DNA from: an uncultured Roseicyclus sp.
Lineage (GTDB): Bacteria > Pseudomonadota > Alphaproteobacteria > Rhodobacterales > Rhodobacteraceae
NCBI GenBank assembly: GCA_964460185.1
Contig: CAYWTM010000004.1
Span: forward strand, 3,151 to 67,150
Direction of reading: 5' to 3'
DNA length: 64,000 bases
Part shown: piece after piece, positions 3,905 through 63,894 of the stretch
How positions within the stretch are numbered: position 1 is the stretch's first letter
Layout of the letters: the number at the start of each line of letters is the position of its first letter
The notes under the pieces: model-generated
The model's input: the letters and a program-made list of their open reading frames with translations, nothing else
Database searches by the model: none
What the model was told of the DNA's origin: nothing
Translations under genes and position numbers: made by a program

Positions 3905-5068
3905 TTAACCGTCGATCCCGTGCAGCGCCAGAAGCTGCCGCATCCGATATCGGGCAAGATCGGGGTCCGACAACAGGCGCGCCTGGTCCGCCAGCCGGAA
4001 TACCTGCGCGTAATGGGTGATCTCGCGCGACGATTGGAACCCGCCGGGCATGATGAAGTGGCTCTGGGTGCCGTTGAGCCAGCTCAGGAACGCGATGCCG
4101 GCCTTGTAGAACTGCGTCGGCGCCTTGAAGATTTCGCGGCTCAGCGGAACCGTCGGGGCAAGAAGGGCATGGTAGGTCTGGACGTCCCCTTTCGCCAACG
4201 CCTCCAGCGCCTGCGACGCGGCGGGCGCAATGGCCGCGAAGATTCCGAGCAGCGCGTGGGAAAAGTGCGTCCCGTCCCCCTGGATCAGGGCGGCATAGTT
4301 GAAATCATCGCCGGTATAGAGCCTCACCCCATCAGGCAGGCGGGCGCGAAACGCTTCTTCATGGGCCTGATCCAGCAGGCTGATCTTGATGCCGTCGACC
4401 TTGGCCGCGTGGCGGGTGATCAGGTCGAGCACGATCTGATTGGCCGCCTCAACCTCGGCCGCCCCCCAGTACCCGGCCAGGCCCGCGTCGAACATGTCAC
4501 CCAGCCAATGCAGGATCACGGGGTTTGCGGCTTTTTCGATAAGGTGATCGTAGACGCGGGCGTATGTATCGGGCCCGGCCCCGATTGCGGGCAATGCGCG
4601 GGTGGCCATCACGATGATCTGACCGCCGGCCGCCTCGATCGCTTCCATCTGGGTTTCATAGGCGGCGATGATGGCATCGGCATCGCGCAACTCCGCAAGG
4701 GGCACGTGATCGGTGCCCGCGCCACAGGCCACGCGCGGTTTCAGCGGATGTGCCTTTGCCTCGACCATCGTGCGCTCGATCAATTCCCGCGCCGTGGCCC
4801 AGTCGACACCCATGCCCCGTTGCGCGGTGTCCATCGCCTCGGCCAGCCCAAGGCCCTGATCCCAAAGACCGTGGCGAAACGCGAGCGTCGCGTCCCAGTC
4901 GACGGCAGGTCGGCCGACCCAAGGGGCGCGTTCGGCCAAGGGATCGCTGACCACGTGGGCCGCGGCAAAGGCCGTCCGGGTCAGCGGCACGGCGGGCGCG
5001 CGCGGGACCAACGGATCGCCGGTCAGGTCATGGCGCTCGAGGGTTCCGGAATAGGTTGGCAGCAACAT
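3905..5068 (-). CDS. DUF993-like TIM-barrel protein (DapA-like fold), function unknown
   Basis: 387 aa ORF with high GC3. The family assignment is from memory of DUF993 proteins that co-occur with sugar oxidoreductases. Confidence 0.55.
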   Translation of the reverse strand: MLLPTYSGTLERHDLTGDPLVPRAPAVPLTRTAFAAAHVVSDPLAERAPWVGRPAVDWDATLAFRHGLWDQGLGLAEAMDTAQRGMGVDWATARELIERTMVEAKAHPLKPRVACGAGTDHVPLAELRDADAIIAAYETQMEAIEAAGGQIIVMATRALPAIGAGPDTYARVYDHLIEKAANPVILHWLGDMFDAGLAGYWGAAEVEAANQIVLDLITRHAAKVDGIKISLLDQAHEEAFRARLPDGVRLYTGDDFNYAALIQGDGTHFSHALLGIFAAIAPAASQALEALAKGDVQTYHALLAPTVPLSREIFKAPTQFYKAGIAFLSWLNGTQSHFIMPGGFQSSREITHYAQVFRLADQARLLSDPDLARYRMRQLLALHGIDG

Positions 5069-5071
5069 GGC

Positions 5072-6658
5072 TCAGCCCCTTGCATCTTCGCGGATCATGT
5101 CGGCGGCTTTCTCGCCAATCATGATGGCCGCGGCATTGGTGTTGGAGGAAATCACCCGCGGCATGATGGAGTTGTCCACCACGCGCAGCCCCTCGATCCC
5201 GTTGAACCGCAGGCGGGTGTCGACCACGGCATCAGGGTCGCTACCCATCCTGCAGGTTCCCGCACAGTGATGCGATGTCTTGGAATGCGCACAGATGAAA
5301 TTGTAGTAATCCTCGTCCGTCTTCACATCCGGTCCAGGCAGGCGTTCGGCCTTGATCATCCCGGCCAGGGGGGCCTGGCCCATGATCTGCTGTGTCAGTT
5401 TCAGGCCTCGGATCGACATCTCGCGATCCTGCGGGTCCTGCAGGTAATTCGGGTCGATCAAGGGCGCTTTGGCCGGATCGTCGGATTGCAGCCGCACCGT
5501 GCCCCGTGACCGCGGGCGCAGATAACAGCTGTTCAGCGTGACGCCGCCGTCGGGCATCACGGCCACACCCTTTTCGATGCCGGTGCCAAGGCCGAGATGG
5601 AACTGGATATCGGGCGAGCGTGCATTTGGGTCGGCATACCAGAACCCACCGGTCTCAAAGAGGCTGGAGGCAACGGGCCCCTTGCGGGTGATCATGTATT
5701 GCAGCCCGGCAAGGGCCGCCAGATGCGGCTTGGCGAACCGGTCGTAGCTGTGGGGGCCCGACAGTTCGCAAATGCAGTAAAGGTCCAGATGGTCTTGCAG
5801 GTTTTCGCCCACTTGGCGCTGATCCAGCACCACGTCGATACCCATGTCGTGCAGATGATCCGCCGGCCCGATCCCCGATAGCTGCAGCAATCGCGGCGAC
5901 CCGATCGCGCCCGACGACAGCAACACCTCTTGCGCGGCGGCGATCCGGGTGCCGTCGGTCAGCTCCACGCCTTTGGCCCGCCCCGCCTCGACGATCAGGC
6001 GGCGCACCTGAACACCGGTTTTCACGGTCAGGTTGGCGCGCCCCGCATTCGGCGCAAGATACGCCATCGCGGCCGAAGAACGCCGCGCATTGCGTTGGGT
6101 CAGCTGGTAGTAGGCAACGCCATCCTGCGCCTCGCCGTTCACATCCTCGTTTCGCGGGATGCCAAGCGCCGCCGCAGCCTCGAAATATGCGTCGCAAATC
6201 GGCAGGGGCGATATGGGTTGTGACACGCCCAGCGGGCCGCCCTGTCCGTGAAAGCGGTTGTTGTAGGTGTCGTTGTCCTCGGCCTTGCGAAAATACGGCA
6301 AGACGTCGTCGTAGCTCCACCCGTCGCAGCCCATCTGCCGCCATTCGTCGTAATCCCGCGCGTTGCCGCGCGTGTAGATCTGCGCGTTGATCGCCGATCC
6401 GCCGCCGATCACCTTGGCCTGGGTGTAGTTGAACACCCGGCCCTGCATGTGGCGCTGCGGCACGGTTTCCCAGCCCCATGACCCGATGCCCTTTGTCATC
6501 TTCGCAAAGCCTGCGGGCAGGTGATAGAACGGATGCCGGTCGCGCCCGCCCGCCTCGAGCAGGCAGACCCGGACCGCCGGATCCTCGCTCAGCCGCGCGG
6601 CCAGAACGCACCCCGCGCTGCCGCCCCCGATGATGATGTAGTCATACCCTTCGGCCAT
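5072..6658 (-). CDS. GMC-family FAD oxidoreductase (choline/alcohol dehydrogenase-like)
   Basis: YDYIIIGGGSAGCVLAARLSED Rossmann motif. C-terminal GMC signature HHCAGTCRMG. Confidence 0.9.
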   Translation of the reverse strand: MAEGYDYIIIGGGSAGCVLAARLSEDPAVRVCLLEAGGRDRHPFYHLPAGFAKMTKGIGSWGWETVPQRHMQGRVFNYTQAKVIGGGSAINAQIYTRGNARDYDEWRQMGCDGWSYDDVLPYFRKAEDNDTYNNRFHGQGGPLGVSQPISPLPICDAYFEAAAALGIPRNEDVNGEAQDGVAYYQLTQRNARRSSAAMAYLAPNAGRANLTVKTGVQVRRLIVEAGRAKGVELTDGTRIAAAQEVLLSSGAIGSPRLLQLSGIGPADHLHDMGIDVVLDQRQVGENLQDHLDLYCICELSGPHSYDRFAKPHLAALAGLQYMITRKGPVASSLFETGGFWYADPNARSPDIQFHLGLGTGIEKGVAVMPDGGVTLNSCYLRPRSRGTVRLQSDDPAKAPLIDPNYLQDPQDREMSIRGLKLTQQIMGQAPLAGMIKAERLPGPDVKTDEDYYNFICAHSKTSHHCAGTCRMGSDPDAVVDTRLRFNGIEGLRVVDNSIMPRVISSNTNAAAIMIGEKAADMIREDARG

Positions 6659-39658: not shown

Positions 39659-39802
39659 CAATCGTCTTTCCGGGCAGAATGCATGTTGCAAGGTTCCTTG
39701 CACAAAGGCCCATACCGCACAAGTTAAAACCTAATTATATAGTTTTTCGAAGGCCTGGCGTGGTGACGGACTCACCATTGCGGATCGTTTCGACATGGCG
39801 GG

Positions 39803-40126
39803 TCAACGCGCGCCTTGTGTGCTTTCTCCGACACGGTCAGGCGCGCTGGGCGAGGGGAGCAAGTCCATTTCCGCCTCCAGCATGCCCAGGCCCTTCGGCT
39901 TCTTTTCCCGGTATCGGATGATGCGTTTGAGTTTGGGAAAATGCGACCAGTCCCACGACGAATAGCTGCCGCCCATCGCCACCGAAATCTTGCGCATCGA
40001 AAAGCCGAAGCGGTCTTCGCACACGACCTCGACCACGGTGCCCGGCTGGACGGGGCAGCCCTTGCCATCATGGATGATCCAGGGGCCCCAGTCTTCGCCG
40101 CCGTCATGCTTCCAAGATGTCGCCAT
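39803..40126 (-). CDS. hypothetical 107-aa protein
   Basis: High GC3 in this frame. No recognisable domain. Lies 147 bp downstream of the dynamin operon on the same strand. Confidence 0.55.
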   Translation of the reverse strand: MATSWKHDGGEDWGPWIIHDGKGCPVQPGTVVEVVCEDRFGFSMRKISVAMGGSYSSWDWSHFPKLKRIIRYREKKPKGLGMLEAEMDLLPSPSAPDRVGESTQGAR

Positions 40127-40273
40127 TCCATCCTCGCTGTTGGAGCCTGTTCAGACGGTAAGCCTCAGTGTGCATGAATCATAAACCGGTCCGCGAATTG
40201 TGCAACAAGGGGGGATTGCACATGCGATGCGCAACGGCAGGGGAACGCGGATGATCGAAACGCAGACGATCGG

Positions 40274-41599
40274 TCAGGCTTCCGCATCGAATGCCCGGCA
40301 CATCCGGTTGAGCGATATCTGCGCAAGCCCGGAGCTTACGACCGACGCATCCACAAGGATGAAGACAAGCCCGACATCCGGGATGACCTGAAACAGCAAC
40401 CGGTGCTTGTGCATCGACAGGTTCAGGGATGAAACTTTCCCGCGCATGTCGGAAACGCCGAAGGCCGTGGTGAGGCGGCGCAGGGTTTCGTCACACAACA
40501 TCCCGAGTTCGCGGCACGTCGTTTCGTCACCTGCCAAGACTTCGGATGCATCCGGCGCAGAAAACAGCGTCACGCCCACGGCACGGGCCCCCGCCAGGTT
40601 GCCGGCCATCTGCCTCAGACTATCCGTGACATCTGCCACGCCCGGGCCGGACTGGTTGGCCCGTGGTGCCGCGATCCTGGCTTTCGGCGCCTCAACTGGC
40701 GTCGGCTTGGGGTCCGGGGCGACGCCAGCCATATCCTCCGCGATATCCGGAACGTCCGCTGTGGCATCCTCCACATCGGGCGCGCCATCCCCCGAGGCCA
40801 CCGACCGGGCGCGGAATTCAGCGATGTCGCAGATGTCACCCGCATCGCCCGCAGGACGCGCCGGGGCTTCCTCGAGAACCGAACCCGGGTTGCGGATCCC
40901 CGGGCCGAAGGACCGGATGGTCGACAGGATTTCAGGCGCGCCCGTTTCGATCCAGACATCTTCGGAACCGGCGGCGGCGTCGATGGTCTGGCGAAACCCA
41001 CACACGAAGATACAGCTGTCGAAATAGGGGCCGGTTTCCCTGACCAGGCGTTCCCTGAGGCGGCGTCGGTCACGGGCGGTGCGCAGCTTGTCTGCCCTCG
41101 ACACCGCCAGGATCCCGTGTCTTGGGCGGGCATCGCCCAACTGCTCGACGATGCTCTGTTCCGTCAATCGCCAGGCCTGGGATGCGATGGTAACCCAGAT
41201 CATGACATCGCAAGACCCGATCAGGCGGCACTGTGCCTCGGTCAGATCCGAGGCGGTCGTCAGCGGCACTTCAACCAGTTCGACCCCGACAAGATGCGCC
41301 TGATCCGTCCAGAGTTGCACCTTTGCGGCGCCGCGAAATACATCGGGGTCCGCAGCACCGTCACACCTCGTGTGCTGGCCGTCAGCATCGTGAATGTCCA
41401 GACCCGCCTGTGCACGGTACGACGCAACGATGACAGGCCGGCTGTCGCGGCCGACATTGTCCGGCAGGACCCGCGCGCGCAGCAGTGCGTTGAGAACCGT
41501 GGACTTTCCCGAACTGATCTCGCCGCACACGGCAACCTTGAGCACCGGCCAGTTGTTGGTCCGCGCCGCATCGTCGATGACGGTCTGCTGTGTCGGCAT
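40274..41599 (-). CDS. short dynamin-family GTPase with degenerate G3 and a C-terminal Roadblock/LC7-like domain
   Basis: P-loop GEISSGKSTVLNALL. G4-like SRAD. The G3 position reads EVPL instead of DTPG. The last ~110 aa align by pattern to the standalone Roadblock protein (HRLLFQVIPDVGLVFILVDASVVSSGLAQISL versus LHLIRPLASNPAIFLYLAVERKTANLGMARLAL). GAGGAT RBS before ATG 41599. Confidence 0.8.
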   Translation of the reverse strand: MPTQQTVIDDAARTNNWPVLKVAVCGEISSGKSTVLNALLRARVLPDNVGRDSRPVIVASYRAQAGLDIHDADGQHTRCDGAADPDVFRGAAKVQLWTDQAHLVGVELVEVPLTTASDLTEAQCRLIGSCDVMIWVTIASQAWRLTEQSIVEQLGDARPRHGILAVSRADKLRTARDRRRLRERLVRETGPYFDSCIFVCGFRQTIDAAAGSEDVWIETGAPEILSTIRSFGPGIRNPGSVLEEAPARPAGDAGDICDIAEFRARSVASGDGAPDVEDATADVPDIAEDMAGVAPDPKPTPVEAPKARIAAPRANQSGPGVADVTDSLRQMAGNLAGARAVGVTLFSAPDASEVLAGDETTCRELGMLCDETLRRLTTAFGVSDMRGKVSSLNLSMHKHRLLFQVIPDVGLVFILVDASVVSSGLAQISLNRMCRAFDAEA

Positions 41600-41610
41600 T
41601 GCGGATATCC

Positions 41611-43731
41611 TCAGGCGGCTTCGGGCAGGTCGGATCGGGACAGCGCGCTGTCAAGCGCCGACAGGTTCAGCAAAAGACGTTCCAGCACCTCCATTCGGCT
41701 TTGCAGACGCCGGACCAGATTGGCCCGCATCTCGGGATCATGGGCGATCTTTTCCATCTCGGCCTTGTCCTGCTTCAATCGAAGAGTGTGTTCGGCAAGG
41801 CTGTCCTCGACCATGCGCAGCATGACCTGAATCCGTGACATGCCTGCTGTCGCGCGTTCCACCTGCGCCTCGTTGAAGGCCGCAAGGATCTGCTCGACCG
41901 ATGGTCTCAATTCGGCGGCGGCAATCAAATGCAGGGCGGCGAGTGACCTCTCGATATTGACCGTCCTTTGGCGCCAGAACGCCCAGCCGCGATCTGCGAT
42001 CAGCCCCGCGCGCAGGGTCCGCCTTGGCAGGGTCAGGGTCGACATGAACTCTGCATAGGGCAGATCGTCCAACGCGATGTTCTCGGACGGGTCCTGGAAC
42101 TTGTCCTTGATGGCGTGGCGGCAGGCATGGATGCAGTTGTTCAGCGCGACATCCGTGGCGGCCCGCGATTTTTCATAGTATCGCAGCACGTCCCTTTCGA
42201 TCGCGAACTGAAGCGGTGTCGTCTCGATCTCCAGCGCCTTCGTGGCCTGGCCCCGGACGGACGATCTGAACAGGTGTTCCTCAAAGACCGCCTTCTGGCT
42301 TTCCACGAAGGTTTCGATCGACGACAAAAGCTTCCCTTCCAGACTGGTCCAGGATTTCGTCACCACCTTTTCGATCTGCAGATCAGCGGCTTCGACATGC
42401 GCGGCGATTTCTGACTGCACCTTGCGCATGCTTGCGATTTCCGACTCGAGTTCTGCAGCGGCGGCTTCGGCGATGTCGGCCCGGATGCTTTCCACCTGCA
42501 ATTGCAGGGCGTCACGGTTGCGTTTCGCCACGAACTGCGTGCCGGTCAGTTCTGCGCGGATGTCGCCCAGAAGCTGACCCAGCTGCCTGGTCCCGACACC
42601 GTTGTCGATGATCTCCGACAGCGTCGCCTTGACCTCATTCAACCCGGAGGCCAGCAGCAACCGCTCGGCCCGATCGTTCGGAACATGGCCATGCCTGGAC
42701 CGGATATACTCCGCCAGTTCGGGCGTATCCACGGATGCCCGGGCCGCTTCCACCTCGTCGTCATCACGCATCACGAGATCGGCCAGATATGCGCTGCCTG
42801 CCACGATCTTGAACTCGATGTCCGGGATGGCATCGCGCAACCGGCGCGAAACATCCGCCATCACCCGGGGCACCTCGGTGCTGTAGTCATCCAGTTCGTC
42901 GATGCGGTTCACATAGATCAACACATCTTTCGCATCCTGCTTTGCCAGAATGCGGATCAGCGCAACGTCGACCTCGGTAAGGGGTTGATGCGCAGACAGA
43001 ACAACGATGAACACATCCGATTTGTCCAGGCTGCGGCAGGTGAATTCATCGCGCACAAGGAACGGATCGTTCACGCCGGGCGTGTCCGTGAGTATGGTAG
43101 GAACCTGAAAATCAGGCACCCGCAAATACAGATTGGCCACCTTGGTCAGGGCGGCATAGCGGCCCAGCGACTTGTCATCCAGATCATGGTCGGATCCGGG
43201 GCCGGCACAAACATATCGCTTCAACAGATCGGGCGTCAGGAAATCATAGTCGTGCTTGCTGCCAAGCAGGGTGTGATAGTAATTTCCCAACCGCTTCTTG
43301 GCGCGTTCGCGCATCTCTTCGCTCTGCCGTTGCAGAAGATCGGTGTCGAACCCCGGCAAGAGCTGCTCGGTCAGTTTGCGGACCTTGGAGCCGCCCGACA
43401 TGATCTCTTGCCAGTCCTTTTCATCAAAGAATTCGAACCGCGCGCCGAATGACGGATCCTTGGGCAGGTTTATCCGAACATTCGTCACCACCGACGTCCA
43501 TGGGTTCACGTCCGAGGGCAGAAATTCGTGCTGTTCCAGGAAAGCATTCAGAAAGGTCGATTTACCGGCCTTGACCTGCCCGATCACGGCGACCTTGGCA
43601 GCCCATTGATCCAACCGCTGCCTGAGGTCCTGGAAATTCTGCCACGTCTTGCGGTCAACCATGGTTTGCAGGCGGTCGAGCGTTTCACGCAGGAAATCCA
43701 GCTCTCTCCGCTGATTGGGCGCGATCTTCAC
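41611..43731 (-). CDS. long dynamin-family GTPase (bacterial dynamin-like protein)
   Basis: G1 GQVKAGKSTFLN, G3 DTPGVND, G4 NRID, then a long helical stalk. The GTG start overlaps the upstream stop (GTGA). Confidence 0.9.
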   Translation of the reverse strand: MKIAPNQRRELDFLRETLDRLQTMVDRKTWQNFQDLRQRLDQWAAKVAVIGQVKAGKSTFLNAFLEQHEFLPSDVNPWTSVVTNVRINLPKDPSFGARFEFFDEKDWQEIMSGGSKVRKLTEQLLPGFDTDLLQRQSEEMRERAKKRLGNYYHTLLGSKHDYDFLTPDLLKRYVCAGPGSDHDLDDKSLGRYAALTKVANLYLRVPDFQVPTILTDTPGVNDPFLVRDEFTCRSLDKSDVFIVVLSAHQPLTEVDVALIRILAKQDAKDVLIYVNRIDELDDYSTEVPRVMADVSRRLRDAIPDIEFKIVAGSAYLADLVMRDDDEVEAARASVDTPELAEYIRSRHGHVPNDRAERLLLASGLNEVKATLSEIIDNGVGTRQLGQLLGDIRAELTGTQFVAKRNRDALQLQVESIRADIAEAAAAELESEIASMRKVQSEIAAHVEAADLQIEKVVTKSWTSLEGKLLSSIETFVESQKAVFEEHLFRSSVRGQATKALEIETTPLQFAIERDVLRYYEKSRAATDVALNNCIHACRHAIKDKFQDPSENIALDDLPYAEFMSTLTLPRRTLRAGLIADRGWAFWRQRTVNIERSLAALHLIAAAELRPSVEQILAAFNEAQVERATAGMSRIQVMLRMVEDSLAEHTLRLKQDKAEMEKIAHDPEMRANLVRRLQSRMEVLERLLLNLSALDSALSRSDLPEAA

Positions 43732-45236
43732 GGCTTTCTCCTATTCACCACATGCTGCACAAGCGCGTGGGCCACATCTTGATGTGTGTCATCGCGACGT
43801 GGCGCACCTATGGCCGGGGCGTTCTGCTGTCCGTCCAGTGTCACGATCAGCTCTTCGACGCAGCTCAGCACCATGTCGGCATCGGCGAGATCGACACCGC
43901 GCACCAGGTCTTCCCAGATGGATCGCGCGGTTGCCGGTTGCACGACGTCCGGGGGCGGTGACACGGCTGGCGCTTCTTCCTCGGAGGCGAGGGACACCAG
44001 GAGATGCACATTGTCTGCAATGCTTGTATCGAACTCGGGGTCCGCCTCGGGGCCAAGGTCATCCTCCGTCGCGACCGTTGGCTCGATGACCTCTTCCTGC
44101 TCGGCCTCAGGCTCGGCAGCCTCTTCCGTCGCGACCGTTGGCTCGTCAGCCTCCTCCTGCTCGGCCTCAGGCTCGGCAGCCTCTTCCGTCGCGACCGTTG
44201 GCTCGTCAGCCTCCTCCTGCTCGGCCTCCGGCTCGTCCCACTGCAAGCCGATCAGCGCCGCCAGAAGCGATTGTTCCGGGTCGCTCGCAGTTTGCGCCGC
44301 ATCCTCTTCGGGATGTCGTGCGACGATCTGCGGTTCGGTCACCTCATGATGCGCCGGGGTTTGAGATTGGGCAGCGTCTGGCGGAACGCCGGGTGGGGCC
44401 TGCTCGATAATGGTTTCTACTCTCGGCGCGATGGTGCCGGCGCTCACGCGCCGCGGGATCACGCGCCGGGGTATGACCGGCGTTCTTGCCGCCGCCCGTC
44501 GGAACACCTCGAAGACATCCGCGATCTGTTCGGAGGTCTGTTCCAAAGGCCCAAAGCCCTGCGTCAGCGTTTCAAGATGCGCTCGGATCGTCGCGATGTC
44601 ACCCTCGTCCAACAGCGACGCCATCAGGAAGTGTTTGAAATAGAACTCCGCGTCGCGGCGAACCCGGCGCAGGACCCGATCACCGGCACGTTCGTCCGGC
44701 AAACGGTCGGCGTGGGTCATCAAGAGCGTCGCGTCGAAAAGCAGGCGATCGGGCATTTCATTCCAAACCGACTTTTCGCTTTGCCGCCAGGCCTGGGTCG
44801 CATTGGTGCACCAGATCACCGCGTCCGCGTGATCCAGCATCCATTCCCAGCTCTGCGTGGGTATGTTCGGATCCGATGTGCCGGGCGTGTCGATGATATC
44901 GCAGGCTTCCAGGATCGGCGCGGGATGCGACAAGATGCAATACCGGGTATCATCGACCGTGACGCTATCCAGAGACGCGACTTCCCGGGTCTGGCCATCC
45001 AGACCGACCGTCATGCAGAACCTTTCGCCCGCGATCAGCCAGACCGGCGGCAACGCGGTGGCGGTCACGTTGGACGGCAGAATGCGCTCTCCCAAAAGAC
45101 CGTTGATCAACTTGGTCTTTCCGGCGCTGAATTCGCCCGCGACCATCAGCCTGGGCTTGCGGCCGCGCTTTTGGCCTTCTGATGCGTCCATGCCGCCGTC
45201 TTGCGCGGTCTCGGGTGTGGTGCCCATGTATGTCAT
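43728..45236 (-). CDS. short dynamin-family GTPase with an acidic tandem-repeat region
   Basis: G1 GEFSAGKTKLIN, G3 DTPGTSD, G4 THAD. Contains EPEAEQEEADEPTVATEEAA repeats. The ATG overlaps the upstream stop (ATGA). Confidence 0.85.
   Translation of the reverse strand: MTYMGTTPETAQDGGMDASEGQKRGRKPRLMVAGEFSAGKTKLINGLLGERILPSNVTATALPPVWLIAGERFCMTVGLDGQTREVASLDSVTVDDTRYCILSHPAPILEACDIIDTPGTSDPNIPTQSWEWMLDHADAVIWCTNATQAWRQSEKSVWNEMPDRLLFDATLLMTHADRLPDERAGDRVLRRVRRDAEFYFKHFLMASLLDEGDIATIRAHLETLTQGFGPLEQTSEQIADVFEVFRRAAARTPVIPRRVIPRRVSAGTIAPRVETIIEQAPPGVPPDAAQSQTPAHHEVTEPQIVARHPEEDAAQTASDPEQSLLAALIGLQWDEPEAEQEEADEPTVATEEAAEPEAEQEEADEPTVATEEAAEPEAEQEEVIEPTVATEDDLGPEADPEFDTSIADNVHLLVSLASEEEAPAVSPPPDVVQPATARSIWEDLVRGVDLADADMVLSCVEELIVTLDGQQNAPAIGAPRRDDTHQDVAHALVQHVVNRRKP
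44041..44236 (-). repeat. 60-bp in-frame tandem repeat (about 3.3 copies)
   Basis: 44101-44160 and 44161-44220 are identical. 44041-44100 is a diverged copy, followed by a partial fourth copy. Encodes a 20-aa acidic unit. Confidence 0.95.
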
Positions 45237-47191
45237 GCCGAAAGCTTCTTGTGTTCGGGGTCCAGAACGCCGCCGTCCCCCTTGGAGCGCTCAAAGACCG
45301 CTTTGCAGAACCTTGCCTGATCCATTGCAAACGCGTCGACAATCGCACGCGTCCGTTCGACGGCAGGATCGAAAACGTCATTGATGAGATCGTCGATCAA
45401 TGGGCTCGTCTCGGCCAGAATTACGGCCTCATATCGCTTGCGCGCCTTGCTCACGGCACCGAAGCGCCAGTACTTGCGCCACCATGGCCCCTGCAGATCC
45501 AGTGACAGCGTCCGCGCCAGAATGGTGGGCGGTTTTTCTGCGGGTTGTTCGGGAAAATCGACCGTCCCGCCATCGCGGAAAACACCCAGATCGTTTTCGA
45601 GTATTTCCTGAACGCCATCGAGTAGGATATCGAAGGCGATCTCACCCTCGCGCCGCAACTTGGCGCAGCACGACGTGAAAGCGGTCTTCATCATCATCCG
45701 CAACACGGTTGGGTCGTGGTTCCAGGATCCGATTTCGCCAAAGGCCTCGATATGGGCCTGAAGGGCCTCGAGGGCGGACGCCAGAAAGGTGGTCTGTGCC
45801 CGTTCCAGCCGCCCGCGCAGCATGTTGCGCAATTCGTCGGCATTGGTGTCGAGACTGTGAAGGGCCTTGTCCCGCAGATCAGAGAGCTGTGCGTTGAGCT
45901 CAGCCGCCGACAGGTTGCCCGGAGACGCAAGCTTGACGTTCTTCTGGTCCGCCAGGTTCTCGACGGTTTCGCTCATCTCGATGATCATGTTGATCTCGTT
46001 CTGAACGTCATTGAGGATCGCCGATCCCGGCCCTTCGATCACCCGGCGGGCGATGGCCCTCAGCAATTCATAAACCCCCGAGGCCTCCATCGCGCGGGTG
46101 CGCAGCAGTTCGGGGTCAGACGTGTCGTCGCCATAGAGATGCGCCAGGGCGGCGCGGCTTGCGGGGGCCATGACCGCCGTGGGGTCGATGGCGCAATTCG
46201 CCCAGTATCCGCTGCCGAACAGGATCTGGACCTCTTCACCCAGGCCCAACCGCTTGAGCGTTTTCTCGATGGACGCGCGGATCTTTTCCTTCTCGCCTTC
46301 GGGGTCTTCCAACTCGTCGATGCGATTGACGAAAATCAGGACTTCGCGGGCTTCGACGCTGCAGATGATCCGCAAAAGCGCGACATCCATGGTCGACAGG
46401 GCCTGGTGCGCCGACAACACGACAACACAGACCCGACTGTCGCTGATCGCGTTCAGCGTGATCTGTTCACGCATCATGAAAGTGTCGTTCACACCCGGCG
46501 TGTCCCGCAGGCACAAGCCTTTTGGCAGATAAGGCAGATCCAGATATAGGTCGGCCGATTTCGTGATATCGGCAAAAACCCCTTCCAGGGTGCCATCGGC
46601 CGGATCATCGGGATCACCGTAGCAGATGTAGCGATTGATCGTGTCTTTCTTCAGATCCGGAAAGACATGGCTTTTTCCAAGCAGTCGTTCGAATTCATCG
46701 CCCAGCCTGGCCTCGGTCGTCTGGCGCATCTCGCTGACCTGCAAACGAACCTCTGCCGCTTCCGTCGCAAAGCCGGCCCGTTCTGCCATCTCGCCAAGAC
46801 GCCCGCCGGTTGCCACCAGCCGATCCCATTCATGCGCATCAAAGAACCGGAACAACGCCCGTGTGTTCAGGGGGCGATGGCGGCTGTTGAGATGCAGGGC
46901 CGTGATGACGGACGTCCAGGGATTCACATCCGACGGCAGCATCTCCGTTTGCCCGACCAGCGCGTTGAGCAGCGTGCTTTTGCCTGACTTGACCTGTCCG
47001 ATGATGCTGACCGACGGCTCGAAGGCGTAGATCTTTTCGATGACCCGCTCGATGGGTTCTTCCACAAAGGTGAGCGCCGTTTCCGAAAACTGCTTCAATG
47101 CGCGTTCGAGCGTGTCCAGCCGCTCCCACAGTGCATTGAGTTCTTCGAATCCTTCGCGGTGCTTTTCGAAATTGGTTTCGGCGCGGGGCAT
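45233..47191 (-). CDS. long dynamin-family GTPase (bacterial dynamin-like protein)
   Basis: G1 GQVKSGKSTLLN, G3 DTPGVND, G4 NRID. Start ATG at 47191 with a GGGAGA RBS; the longest ORF runs to 47233. Confidence 0.9.
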   Translation of the reverse strand: MPRAETNFEKHREGFEELNALWERLDTLERALKQFSETALTFVEEPIERVIEKIYAFEPSVSIIGQVKSGKSTLLNALVGQTEMLPSDVNPWTSVITALHLNSRHRPLNTRALFRFFDAHEWDRLVATGGRLGEMAERAGFATEAAEVRLQVSEMRQTTEARLGDEFERLLGKSHVFPDLKKDTINRYICYGDPDDPADGTLEGVFADITKSADLYLDLPYLPKGLCLRDTPGVNDTFMMREQITLNAISDSRVCVVVLSAHQALSTMDVALLRIICSVEAREVLIFVNRIDELEDPEGEKEKIRASIEKTLKRLGLGEEVQILFGSGYWANCAIDPTAVMAPASRAALAHLYGDDTSDPELLRTRAMEASGVYELLRAIARRVIEGPGSAILNDVQNEINMIIEMSETVENLADQKNVKLASPGNLSAAELNAQLSDLRDKALHSLDTNADELRNMLRGRLERAQTTFLASALEALQAHIEAFGEIGSWNHDPTVLRMMMKTAFTSCCAKLRREGEIAFDILLDGVQEILENDLGVFRDGGTVDFPEQPAEKPPTILARTLSLDLQGPWWRKYWRFGAVSKARKRYEAVILAETSPLIDDLINDVFDPAVERTRAIVDAFAMDQARFCKAVFERSKGDGGVLDPEHKKLSA

Positions 47192-47316
47192 GTAGCACGT
47201 CTCCCTGGCAGGGGGCGTGCCAGGGCGCGGCACGCATCTATATGAGCAGCGGTCAGTTCAAAACCTCTCCCCCCTGCGCGTCAGATGAGCTGCGCAAAGG
47301 GGGTTCCCAGGGCCTT

Positions 47317-47673
47317 TCAGACCTTGAGCGTCCCTTCGACGGTCTTCAGCGCAAGACGGGCCATGCCCAGGTTCGCTGTCTTTCGTTCAACCGCCAGGTA
47401 CAAGAAGATCGCCGGGTTCGACGCCAAGGGCCGGATCAGGTGCAATTGGGTGCCAAGCGTGATGAGGAAGTCCTCGATGTAATCATCGAGGCCAAGTGCG
47501 GCCAGGGTTGCGTTCTTCGCCCGCACCACTTCTGTGTTGGCCGCTCCGGCGGCTTCGAGGTCGAACTTCGTGCCCGACGACTCGGACGCCAGCATCAGCC
47601 CGGATTCACTGTCAACAAGGCAGGCCCCGATAAAGCCTGTGGTGTCGCGCAGATCAGAGATATCCGTAGACAT
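47317..47673 (-). CDS. Roadblock/LC7 (MglB-like) domain protein
   Basis: 118 aa. GFIGACLVDSESGLMLA...NTEVVRAKN...IEDFLITLGTQLHLIRPL...FLYLAVERKTANLGMARLAL matches the remembered bacterial Roadblock/LC7 pattern. Confidence 0.8.
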   Translation of the reverse strand: MSTDISDLRDTTGFIGACLVDSESGLMLASESSGTKFDLEAAGAANTEVVRAKNATLAALGLDDYIEDFLITLGTQLHLIRPLASNPAIFLYLAVERKTANLGMARLALKTVEGTLKV

Positions 47674-48344
47674 TGTGGGGTTTCCCTGTGGATTGTTTCA
47701 CAAGGACATTTTTCCGGACTGTGTTTGTTCGAAACTTGACTCAAAAGAGTCATTTTCAAGACGATTGGTTCCAGTCCCGAAAACCACGGCGGCCTGCCTT
47801 GGCTTAGGAAAATCTTAAGCAATACCTGATGCGCAGCCCTTGGTGATTCTTTCCGGCAGCCTTGTGCTTTATTTGCACAGAGTCCGATCCTCCAAATATT
47901 TTTGTTTAAATTCAATATCTTGAAAAAACTGAGCCGGAATTCCCATGGGCATTTCGTGCGCAGCTCGGCCGCTGTGATCAGGATTCGCCAAGCTTTGGTC
48001 CCAGGTTCAGCTTGTTGACGAACCCTCATTCTGCAGCTGCTACCACGCGGATTCCGTGTTCAGGCGTCAGTCGCGAAAGCGGCGATTATGGCAATTCGTG
48101 GGTTTGTGAGGCTTGTGATTATGCCTCGAAAACAGTCTTCAGGGCCTTTCCGAGGGGGACTCGGACCGGTCAGGGACCGATCCAAGCCGAATCAAGGTGC
48201 CATTGGGGCAGCAACCGGCGCGTCCCGTTCAGGCACCTCGAAGCGCTGCCCTCCCGTGCGGACGAAACGGACACGCATTGGAAAGACCTGCGTCGCAGGG
48301 CAGCCTCTTTTCGGGCGACGGCTGCACCCGACTATCGACGCCAG

Positions 48345-62851: not shown

Positions 62852-62928
<77 letters not shown>

Positions 62929-63776: not shown

Positions 63777-63894
63777 GGTTTGGCGGTGACCTACTCTCCC
63801 ACGTCTTAAGACGCAGTACCATCGGCGCAGTAGCACTTAACGGCCGGGTTCGGAATGGAGCCGGGTGTTTTGCTTACGCTATGACCACCAAACC
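63777..63894 (-). rRNA. rrf: 5S ribosomal RNA
   Basis: Reverse complement reads GGTTTGGTGGTCATAGCGTAAGC...CCGAACCCGGCCGTTAAGTGC...GGGAGAGTAGGTCACCGCCAAACC, with complementary ends. Confidence 0.9.

Follow-up and report, generated by a model that had tools for sequence, protein, structure and literature searches.

Gene content of the cluster

The window considered here is the whole analysed stretch of 64,000 nt from an uncultured Roseicyclus sp. (Rhodobacteraceae; assembly GCA_964460185.1, contig CAYWTM010000004.1), and our subject is a cluster of dynamin-like genes with associated Roadblock domains that it contains. The cluster is real and conserved and has apparently not been described before; it is a version of the bacterial dynamin pair in which the Roadblock domains are the new accessory. 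A sequence-only reading of the window had placed five co-directional genes on the minus strand, and the open reading frames (ORFs) agree with it in number, orientation and position. We designate their products P1 (Roadblock-fold protein), P2 and P4 (long dynamins) and P3 and P5 (short dynamins), with P6 denoting a small accessory protein; P2 and P3 together make up module A, and P4 and P5 module B.

47317..47673, minus strand: P1, free Roadblock-fold protein, 118 aa (AlphaFold2 model and Foldseek)
45233..47191, minus strand: P2, long dynamin-like protein A, DLP1/BDLP-like, 652 aa (Dynamin_N, 57.7 bits)
43728..45236, minus strand: P3, short dynamin A, 502 aa (Dynamin_N, 41.0 bits)
41611..43731, minus strand: P4, long dynamin-like protein B, paralogue of P2, 706 aa (Dynamin_N, 58.3 bits)
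40274..41599, minus strand: P5, short dynamin with a Roadblock tail, 441 aa (Dynamin_N, 40.3 bits)
40895..41599, minus strand: P5 N-terminal dynamin-type G domain, degenerate, residues ~1-235 (Dynamin_N, 40.3 bits)
40277..40639, minus strand: P5 C-terminal Roadblock domain, residues ~321-441, behind a low-complexity linker (AlphaFold2 and Foldseek)

The P2/P3 junction is an ATGA overlap, the P3/P4 junction is a GTGA overlap with AGGAGA just 5′ of it, and P4 is joined to P5 by TGA plus 11 nt that include GAGGAT; all three were read directly in the sequence as previously described, and the long/short stop-start overlaps suggest coupled translation. The ATG start of P2, which yields 652 aa, is backed by orthologues. 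The gene set and order of the proposed five-gene operon hold, but P1 and P2 are set apart by a 125-nt spacer with a GC-rich hairpin in it, so that transcription of all five genes as one unit cannot be taken for granted, and a sixth conserved gene, P6, has to be added. Existing database annotation labels parts of the cluster as “roadblock/LC7 domain-containing protein” and “dynamin family protein”.

Roadblock domains of P1 and the P5 tail

Neither P1 nor the P5 tail could be matched to Robl_LC7 (PF03259) or to any other Pfam family, even at E ≤ 10, and NCBIfam, PHROGs and a profile search of PDB sequences yielded nothing for either of them. Because sequence profiles detected neither domain, their identity was settled by structure prediction. 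The AlphaFold2 (AF2) model of P1, built on an alignment of 37 homologues, has a predicted local distance difference test (pLDDT) score of 91.1 and a predicted template modelling (pTM) score of 0.85, with the topology H-E-E-H-E-E-E-H; the model of the P5 tail (35 homologues; pLDDT 90.5, pTM 0.85) has Roadblock topology as well, so that both show the alpha-beta-beta-alpha-beta-beta-beta-alpha Roadblock fold. The best Foldseek match of P1 in the PDB is MglB (6izw_C; E 1e-7, TM-score 0.75), followed by Thermus MglB, LAMTOR2 and Asgard Roadblocks, and the P5 tail retrieves the same proteins, with MglB 6izw_C at E 5e-5. Almost all of the top 50 matches listed for each model are Roadblock proteins (MglB, MglC, LAMTOR2, dynein LC7, Asgard). 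The Roadblock domains claimed earlier for both ends of the cluster, which escaped profiles altogether, are thereby confirmed at the level of predicted structure.

The two domains are very distant from each other: BLASTP produced no alignment between them, and hhalign only a weak one (P 0.0012 and 0.045), which led us to reject a recent duplication. P1 homologues (n = 619) are 62-97% identical across Rhodobacterales genera.

Roadblock domains have so far been known to serve small Ras-like GTPases and dynein as platforms and regulators, and the best fold matches of both domains described here are MglB structures in complex with MglA (6izw, 6h5b, 3t12). They may function chiefly to switch the short G domains in the manner of MglB, as GTPase-activating proteins (GAPs) or guanine nucleotide exchange factors (GEFs); P1 or the P5 tail would bind P3 or P5 on its nucleotide-sensing face and so time the engagement and activation of the long subunits by the short ones. 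The constraint on P1, with 32 invariant residues among 118, is as expected for several binding surfaces. We consider this explanation rather unlikely as the principal one; it is compatible with the structural hub proposed below.

Dynamin-like proteins

The four remaining proteins all exceed the Dynamin_N (PF00350) gathering cut-off of 27 bits, with the scores listed above, and the four P-loops quoted in the sequence-only reading are present in P2-P5. Its pairing of the proteins into paralogues is likewise borne out by alignment, both for the long ones (P2 versus P4: 40% identity over 287 aa, E 4e-64) and for the short ones (P3 versus P5: 29% identity over 157 aa, E 1.4e-12). No transmembrane helix was predicted in any of the cluster proteins checked.

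Complete G1-G4 motifs, conserved in 25-33 orthologues each, are found in P2 (G1 GQVKSGKST, G3 DTPG, G4 NRID; 25 orthologues), in P3 (G1 GEFSAGKT, G3 DTPG, G4 THAD) and in P4 (G1, G3 and G4 kept in 33 orthologues), and not in P5. In an alignment of 36 orthologues, P5 retains G1 (GE[VI]SSGKST) and G4 ([ST]R[AG]D), but its G3 reads E-x-P-[LMFA] rather than DxxG, none of the listed variants having DxxG, and the Thr of switch I lacks conservation. Since DxxG has a general function in P-loop GTPases, its absence makes it most likely that P5 still binds nucleotide but is impaired in hydrolysing it. This weighs against Roadblocks acting mainly as switches, as P5 carries a Roadblock and yet, without G3, would leave little for a GAP to act on; nor was a conserved catalytic-type residue identified. 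Dynamin-class GTPases are usually activated by dimerization of their G domains and not by a separate GAP, and we know of no Roadblock protein that regulates a GTPase of this class.

Among PDB sequences, P2 is best matched by the bacterial dynamin-like protein (BDLP) of Nostoc (2j68, E 7.6e-10) and then by the Campylobacter dynamin-like protein Cj-DLP1 (5owv_A), and P4 matches Cj-DLP1 5owv_A and BDLP 2j68, both at E ~3e-7. Around the P-loop and switch I, P2 and P4 share the BDLP signature GxxKxGKST.LNAL.G...LPSDVNP.T, and beyond the G domain the long proteins extend for ~370 residues. Each has a conserved loop, which is Trp/basic in P2 (LSLDLQGPWWRKYWRFG) and reads DRGWAFWR in P4. For the profile of the short G domains, the best PDB chain is Cj-DLP2 (5owv_C, E 2e-25), with the whole G domain covered. 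An assignment to CrfC, the clamp-binding dynamin-like protein, was tried for the cluster and rejected, the NCBIfam equivalog NF007368 scoring 38.2 bits against a cut-off of 1146.

In both short proteins, ~235 residues are followed by a variable low-complexity linker, and there is no neck or trunk. P3 consists of a G domain (residues ~25-235), a variable acidic/Pro linker and a conserved 40-aa C-terminal motif; its orthologues range in length from 299 to 544 aa, the linker being highly variable in length and of low occupancy in the orthologue alignment. In the window, this linker contains a tandem repeat that encodes acidic EAEQEEADEPTVATEEAAEP repeats:

44065..44235, minus strand: tandem repeat in the P3 linker, 60 nt, 2.8 copies (Tandem Repeats Finder, 95% matches)

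The possibility that the C-terminal motif of P3 is a dock for P1 was rejected, as the motif is confined to module A short proteins of multi-module clusters and persists without P1; more likely, it links module A to module B. Judging by these matches and domain boundaries, the long + short module is a heterotypic pair of the Cj-DLP1/Cj-DLP2 type, with the short partner reduced to its G domain.

Conservation, gene order and fusions

A scan for P1 with one genome per GTDB species uncovered 187 loci, all labelled as Rhodobacterales or relatives save for one record labelled Oceanobacillus (L067), and the best 80 of the 187 were examined. Dynamin genes adjoin P1 in 63 of these 80, in the following architectures:

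Both modules with P1: 23 loci, nearly all in the order P1-P2-P3-P4-P5, most with P6 next
Long + short dynamin with P1: 20 loci
P4-P5-type module with P1 before or behind it: 11 loci
Long dynamin, then a short dynamin that continues in frame into a P1-type Roadblock: 5 loci
Partial architecture: 4 loci
P1 alone: 17 loci

The adjacency of P1 and dynamin genes survives across at least four different gene orders, the flanking genes vary between the genomes carrying the cluster, and no other gene was found to be co-conserved in the 80 loci. The sequence-only reading had raised the prospect of a conserved syntenic unit made of Roadblock and dynamins, and this distribution, with two-module order at 23 loci and differing flanks, agrees with it.

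In Rhodovulum, Rubricella, Loktanella and several metagenome-assembled genomes (MAGs), the P3-type short dynamin and the P1-type Roadblock form a single protein, whereas P1 of the window is free. When 1.84 billion representative proteins were searched with the P1 profile, the seven best-scoring matches, and 14 of the top 150, were such short-dynamin-Roadblock fusions. We regard these in-frame fusions as the strongest evidence that Roadblock and dynamins work together.

The P5 tail provides a second line of evidence. It is present in 33 of the 36 P5-type proteins from loci containing P1 versus one of the five from clusters without adjacent P1 (Fisher p 0.0016), a comparison in which the P1-less set consists of few loci and P1 was judged by adjacency, so that it could lie elsewhere in the genome. 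In the other four of the five, the P5-type protein ends right past the G domain. Three of the P1-less clusters contain six dynamins in three long + short modules (L092 from Mesobacterium pallidum; L094 and L095 from Rhodobacterales MAGs), and their P5-type proteins, of 267-305 aa, have no Roadblock tail. In a divergent four-dynamin cluster (L093), a 133-aa ORF at 4672-5073, between the modules, looks Roadblock-like by eye from the predicted succession of its strands and helices, with marginal matches to the P1 and tail profiles.

These data bear on the possibility that the Roadblock gene is simply a frequent neighbour with a function of its own, and that the dynamin pairs work without P1. Such an arrangement could account for the separate promoter-like region and terminator-like hairpin at P1, for the 17 P1 loci without dynamins, for the dynamin clusters that have no adjacent P1, and for the wider P1-type family being mostly joined to non-dynamin signalling domains. 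It fails to account for the in-frame fusions in several genera (14 representative clusters), for a second Roadblock being fused to P5, for the joint loss of the P5 tail and P1 adjacency, or for the persistence of that adjacency through at least four gene orders, and we find it very improbable.

P1-type Roadblocks outside Rhodobacterales

The P1-type Roadblocks form a large family that lacks a Pfam model: it comprises 2,063 clusters at 50% identity (E ≤ 1e-3), and no Pfam model recognized any of the members scanned. Scanning and inspection by eye located the domain C-terminal to REC + DUF4388, DUF4388, protein kinase or TPR repeats, as in Minicystis rosea. Beyond Rhodobacterales, P1-type Roadblocks (45-60% identical) have two kinds of neighbour, a canonical Robl_LC7 protein and one with DUF4388. 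On a Ralstonia solanacearum megaplasmid (L090, 6249-8351), Robl_LC7 and P1-type Roadblock proteins are accompanied by a 171-aa Ras-like GTPase and unknown proteins; on a Streptomyces plasmid (L089, 5992-8324), by a DUF4388 protein and unknown proteins; and on an Acinetobacter plasmid (L087, 47-1924), by unknown proteins. No description of these three plasmid clusters was found.

The Ralstonia and related neighbourhoods indicate that the usual company of a P1-type Roadblock is a second Roadblock and a GTPase, and they fit a role for it as a Roadblock-pairing partner of GTPases. The position next to a Ras-like GTPase in Ralstonia, and C-terminal in REC-DUF4388 and kinase proteins, also points to signalling, as would be expected if the Roadblocks of the Roseicyclus cluster were switches of the MglB kind.

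Proposed organization of the complex

In the Campylobacter jejuni system (PDB 5owv), a back-to-back Cj-DLP2 dimer at the centre, formed by its neck and trunk, is flanked by Cj-DLP1 to give a 2:2 tetramer, and tetramerization triggers GTPase activity and lipid binding (PMC6104087). The genes of the Roseicyclus pairs are likewise neighbours on the same strand, the long proteins resembling 5owv_A and the short ones 5owv_C, and the working unit would again be a heterotypic pair. Unlike Cj-DLP2, however, P3 and P5 lack the dimer-forming neck and trunk, which are replaced by a linker followed either by a Roadblock (P5) or by a short motif, with the free P1 encoded nearby (P3). Further differences are that the present cluster has the pair in duplicate and that DxxG is missing from one of its short subunits.

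We propose that the cluster encodes a Roadblock-organized heteromeric BDLP complex for membrane tethering, remodelling or resealing, with the Roadblock serving as hub of the short subunits, a reading to which we assign about an even chance of being correct. Two paralogous pairs of the Cj-DLP1/Cj-DLP2 type would combine into one heteromeric BDLP complex, in which P2 and P4, with their full GTPase domains, putative helical stalk regions and a conserved Trp/Arg/Lys-rich loop, would be the membrane-binding and force-generating parts, and P3 and P5 would be DLP2-like G domains that have lost neck and trunk. The Roadblock domains, one attached to P5 and the other being free P1, would stand in for the missing DLP2 dimer hub. 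To our knowledge, Roadblock domains dimerize in all solved Roadblock structures, and a P1:P5-tail heterodimer and/or a P1:P1 homodimer could draw the short G domains together. The latter would then bridge both long subunits, resulting in GTP-dependent tethering, remodelling or resealing of the cytoplasmic membrane, with P5, which has no DxxG, acting as the nucleotide-binding, hydrolysis-impaired regulatory partner. Motif degeneration, fusions, gene order, domain identities and the joint occurrence of P1 with the P5 tail are shown by the data, but it should be kept in mind that we infer every protein-protein contact in this scheme, as well as the membrane binding and the cellular role. More tentatively, and with the balance somewhat against it, Roadblocks may also control dynamin-superfamily GTPases, a Rag-like P5 and a free P1, similar to Ragulator or MglB, both assembling and switching a two-pair BDLP machine.

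Several observations count against a Roadblock hub. The profile alignment of the long proteins to the BDLP trunk, past the G domain, is weak; the P3 of the window has no Roadblock domain; and the C-terminal motif of P3 is found in P1-less clusters as well. A promoter-like region of its own precedes P1, and a hairpin follows its stop codon. P1 is lacking next to some clusters of four or six dynamins, one of which retains the P5 tail, and this indicates that P1 is not strictly required in cis. Orphan P1 paralogues without dynamins occupy housekeeping contexts at 17 loci (L037-L039, L041, L042, L045, L046, L048 and others), where they are 62-69% identical to P1 of the window; in Actibacterium ureilyticum, Pseudogemmobacter bohemicus, Oceanicola m2, Vannielia litorea and Paracoccus IB05, an orphan copy coexists with a dynamin-linked one in the same genome. 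Finally, a metagenome scan with the long-dynamin profile gave at least 447 loci, and among the 80 examined no Roadblock was detectable in 78, with P1-type Roadblocks in the other two. Pairs of a long (~720-760 aa) and a short (~230-460 aa) protein are common in this set and share the motifs DTPGVND and GQVKAGKS (metagenome contigs L098-L173, many of them from soil). As most such pairs have no detectable Roadblock, short subunits can evidently work without one, and on this distribution the Roadblock is an add-on of one lineage, sometimes absent, to a widespread long + short pair. The short partner in metagenomes looks like a G domain only, a form that we have not met in discussion.

Comparison with known systems

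The long + short dynamin pair as such is, by its sequence relationships, already known, and BDLP from Nostoc punctiforme (2j68), DynA, IniA/IniC and LeoABC share with the present proteins Dynamin_N, the P-loop signature, the lack of transmembrane segments and tandem genes. None of these systems has reported Roadblock partners in the open-access literature searched, and no open-access paper or preprint was found that links Roadblock proteins with bacterial dynamins. The earlier statement that no coupling of Roadblock to dynamins was known thus stands as far as this literature goes, but the novelty does not extend to the long + short pair, and the number of dynamins per cluster reaches six rather than four.

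The comparison with MglA/MglB of Myxococcus and Thermus rests on MglB being the best fold match for P1 and the P5 tail, and on a Roadblock being encoded beside a GTPase. It differs in that the partner is a dynamin-class G domain instead of the small Ras-like MglA, and in that the Robl_LC7 model is blind to both domains; there is no small GTPase in the cluster, and none recurs near the 80 P1 loci. With Rag/Gtr and Ragulator (LAMTOR), the likeness is one of architecture: P5 has an N-terminal G domain and a C-terminal Roadblock, accompanied by a free Roadblock as the Rags are by LAMTOR2/3, and both P1 and the P5 tail have LAMTOR2 as one of their top fold matches. However, the P5 G domain is from another GTPase class, and no whole-protein homology is claimed. 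A Streptomyces conservon (CvnA-D) was considered and rejected, since the sensor kinase, DUF742 and small GTPase are all missing in and near the cluster.

Eleos (LeoA + LeoBC) resembles the cluster in being a multi-dynamin operon, and this introduces a further explanation, namely a dynamin-type system for phage defence or abortive infection, Eleos-like or with a DynA-like lysis delay, in which the Roadblock would be sensor or adaptor. In favour of it, PADLOC models of LeoA and LeoBC match P2 and P4 (E 1.8e-14 to 3e-10), copy number and architecture differ from genome to genome, the flanks lack conservation, and distant homologues of P1 lie on plasmids; in B. subtilis, phage protection by DynA needs membrane binding (PMC12998192). 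Yet the P2 match to LeoA, at E 1.8e-14, covers only model positions 100-347 of 559, and that of P4 to LeoBC is at 3e-10; such partial matches (~45% of the LeoA model) would be expected from any BDLP, and P3 has none. Eleos, unlike the present cluster, includes no Roadblock. A defence-island setting, raised earlier as a point to check, was not borne out, as the neighbours in the window serve metabolism and transport, the surroundings of the 80 P1 loci show no recurrent defence gene, and viral relatives were found neither for P1 in IMG/VR nor for P4 in GenBank phages. With 62-97% identity across genera, P1 would be unusually conservative for a defence component. A role in defence is possible with little to support it, and we judge it improbable. 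Mobile or viral origin was rejected on the grounds that IMG/VR gave nothing for P1 and GenBank phages nothing for P4, and that the plasmid matches to P1 are distant and from other phyla.

Returning to the Roadblock-organized complex, its interest lies in the fact that BDLPs are poorly understood, notably as regards assembly and switching-on of heterotypic pairs. The cluster constitutes a natural experiment in which a stalk of the Cj-DLP2 type has been swapped for a small, well-understood dimerization or regulatory fold and one subunit lacks its catalytic motif, and in related genomes the Roadblock can be found fused, split off or missing. If the Roadblock does organize or regulate the complex, two systems of GTPase regulation that have been studied separately would become connected, and the 118-aa P1, which can be removed or swapped, would be a simple handle on BDLP assembly. 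Should Roadblocks prove to control dynamins, this would represent a so far unrecognized regulatory principle of bacterial membrane remodelling.

Accessory gene, regulatory signals and genomic context

Three further features belong to the cluster:

47708..47734, minus strand: promoter-like box (TTTCGAACAAA ... CCGGAAAAAT) upstream of P1 (recurrence in orthologous loci)
47269..47302, minus strand: GC-rich hairpin in the P1-P2 spacer, terminator- or attenuator-like, 11-bp stem
39803..40126, minus strand: P6, conserved accessory protein, 107 aa, ribosome binding site GAGGA, 147 nt past P5

The stem of the hairpin, 11 bp long, lies directly 3′ of the P1 stop codon, with TTTT 6 nt past it. Hairpins of 9-13 bp, also GC-rich, occur at the same site in 19 out of 19 other two-module loci examined (L001-L036); they are not alignable in sequence and are conserved in position and structure only, and the hairpin of the window, taken alone, is not exceptional in comparison with shuffles (z -1.5). 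P1 may be transcribed more strongly than the dynamin genes, or partly apart from them. The promoter-like box is situated 35-61 nt before the P1 ATG, and most of 20 orthologous loci have, at a comparable distance, a TTnGAAC/TTGACC-like box with an A/T-rich hexamer behind it; from this recurrence we infer that it may function as a promoter. A strict sigma-70 scan found nothing, and no LexA, sigma-54, FnrL, sigma-32 or extracytoplasmic function (ECF) sigma pattern was seen upstream of P1. A CtrA-like sequence, TTAAGATTTTCCTAA, lies at 47804-47818 (minus strand), 145 nt upstream of P1; upstream of P1, full CtrA-like TTAA-N7-TTAA boxes occur in 3 of 21 loci and boxes with a single mismatch in 9 of 21, a suggestive pattern that does not hold generally. 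No RNA element was detected within the cluster in an Rfam scan.

P6 (MATSWKHDGGEDWGPWIIHDGKGCPV...) follows P5 in Oceanicola D3 and in most two-module loci. Its neighbour is always a gene bearing a Roadblock: at two-module loci it comes after P5, and at P4-P5-P1 loci it lies opposite P1. It has only 54 homologues, all annotated as ‘hypothetical protein’ in Rhodobacterales, with no Pfam match and a weak match to phrog_9174. A 119-aa ORF overlapping it (39772-40131, minus strand) is Arg/Ala/Trp-rich, shows no conservation and was dismissed as an off-frame artefact in favour of the 107-aa ORF. In Celeribacter litoreus (L026, 9020-10913), two P1 paralogues and P6 are found together, with no dynamin gene within 10 kb.

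The flanks of the cluster in the window encode an enoyl-CoA hydratase, a dehydrogenase, fumarase, Tct and TRAP transporters and an RpiR regulator. A tRNA-Met (CAT) at 62852-62928 and a 5S rRNA at 63778-63892, both on the minus strand, are located ~15 kb from the cluster, and the presence of this tail of an rRNA operon in the same window indicates that the context is chromosomal.

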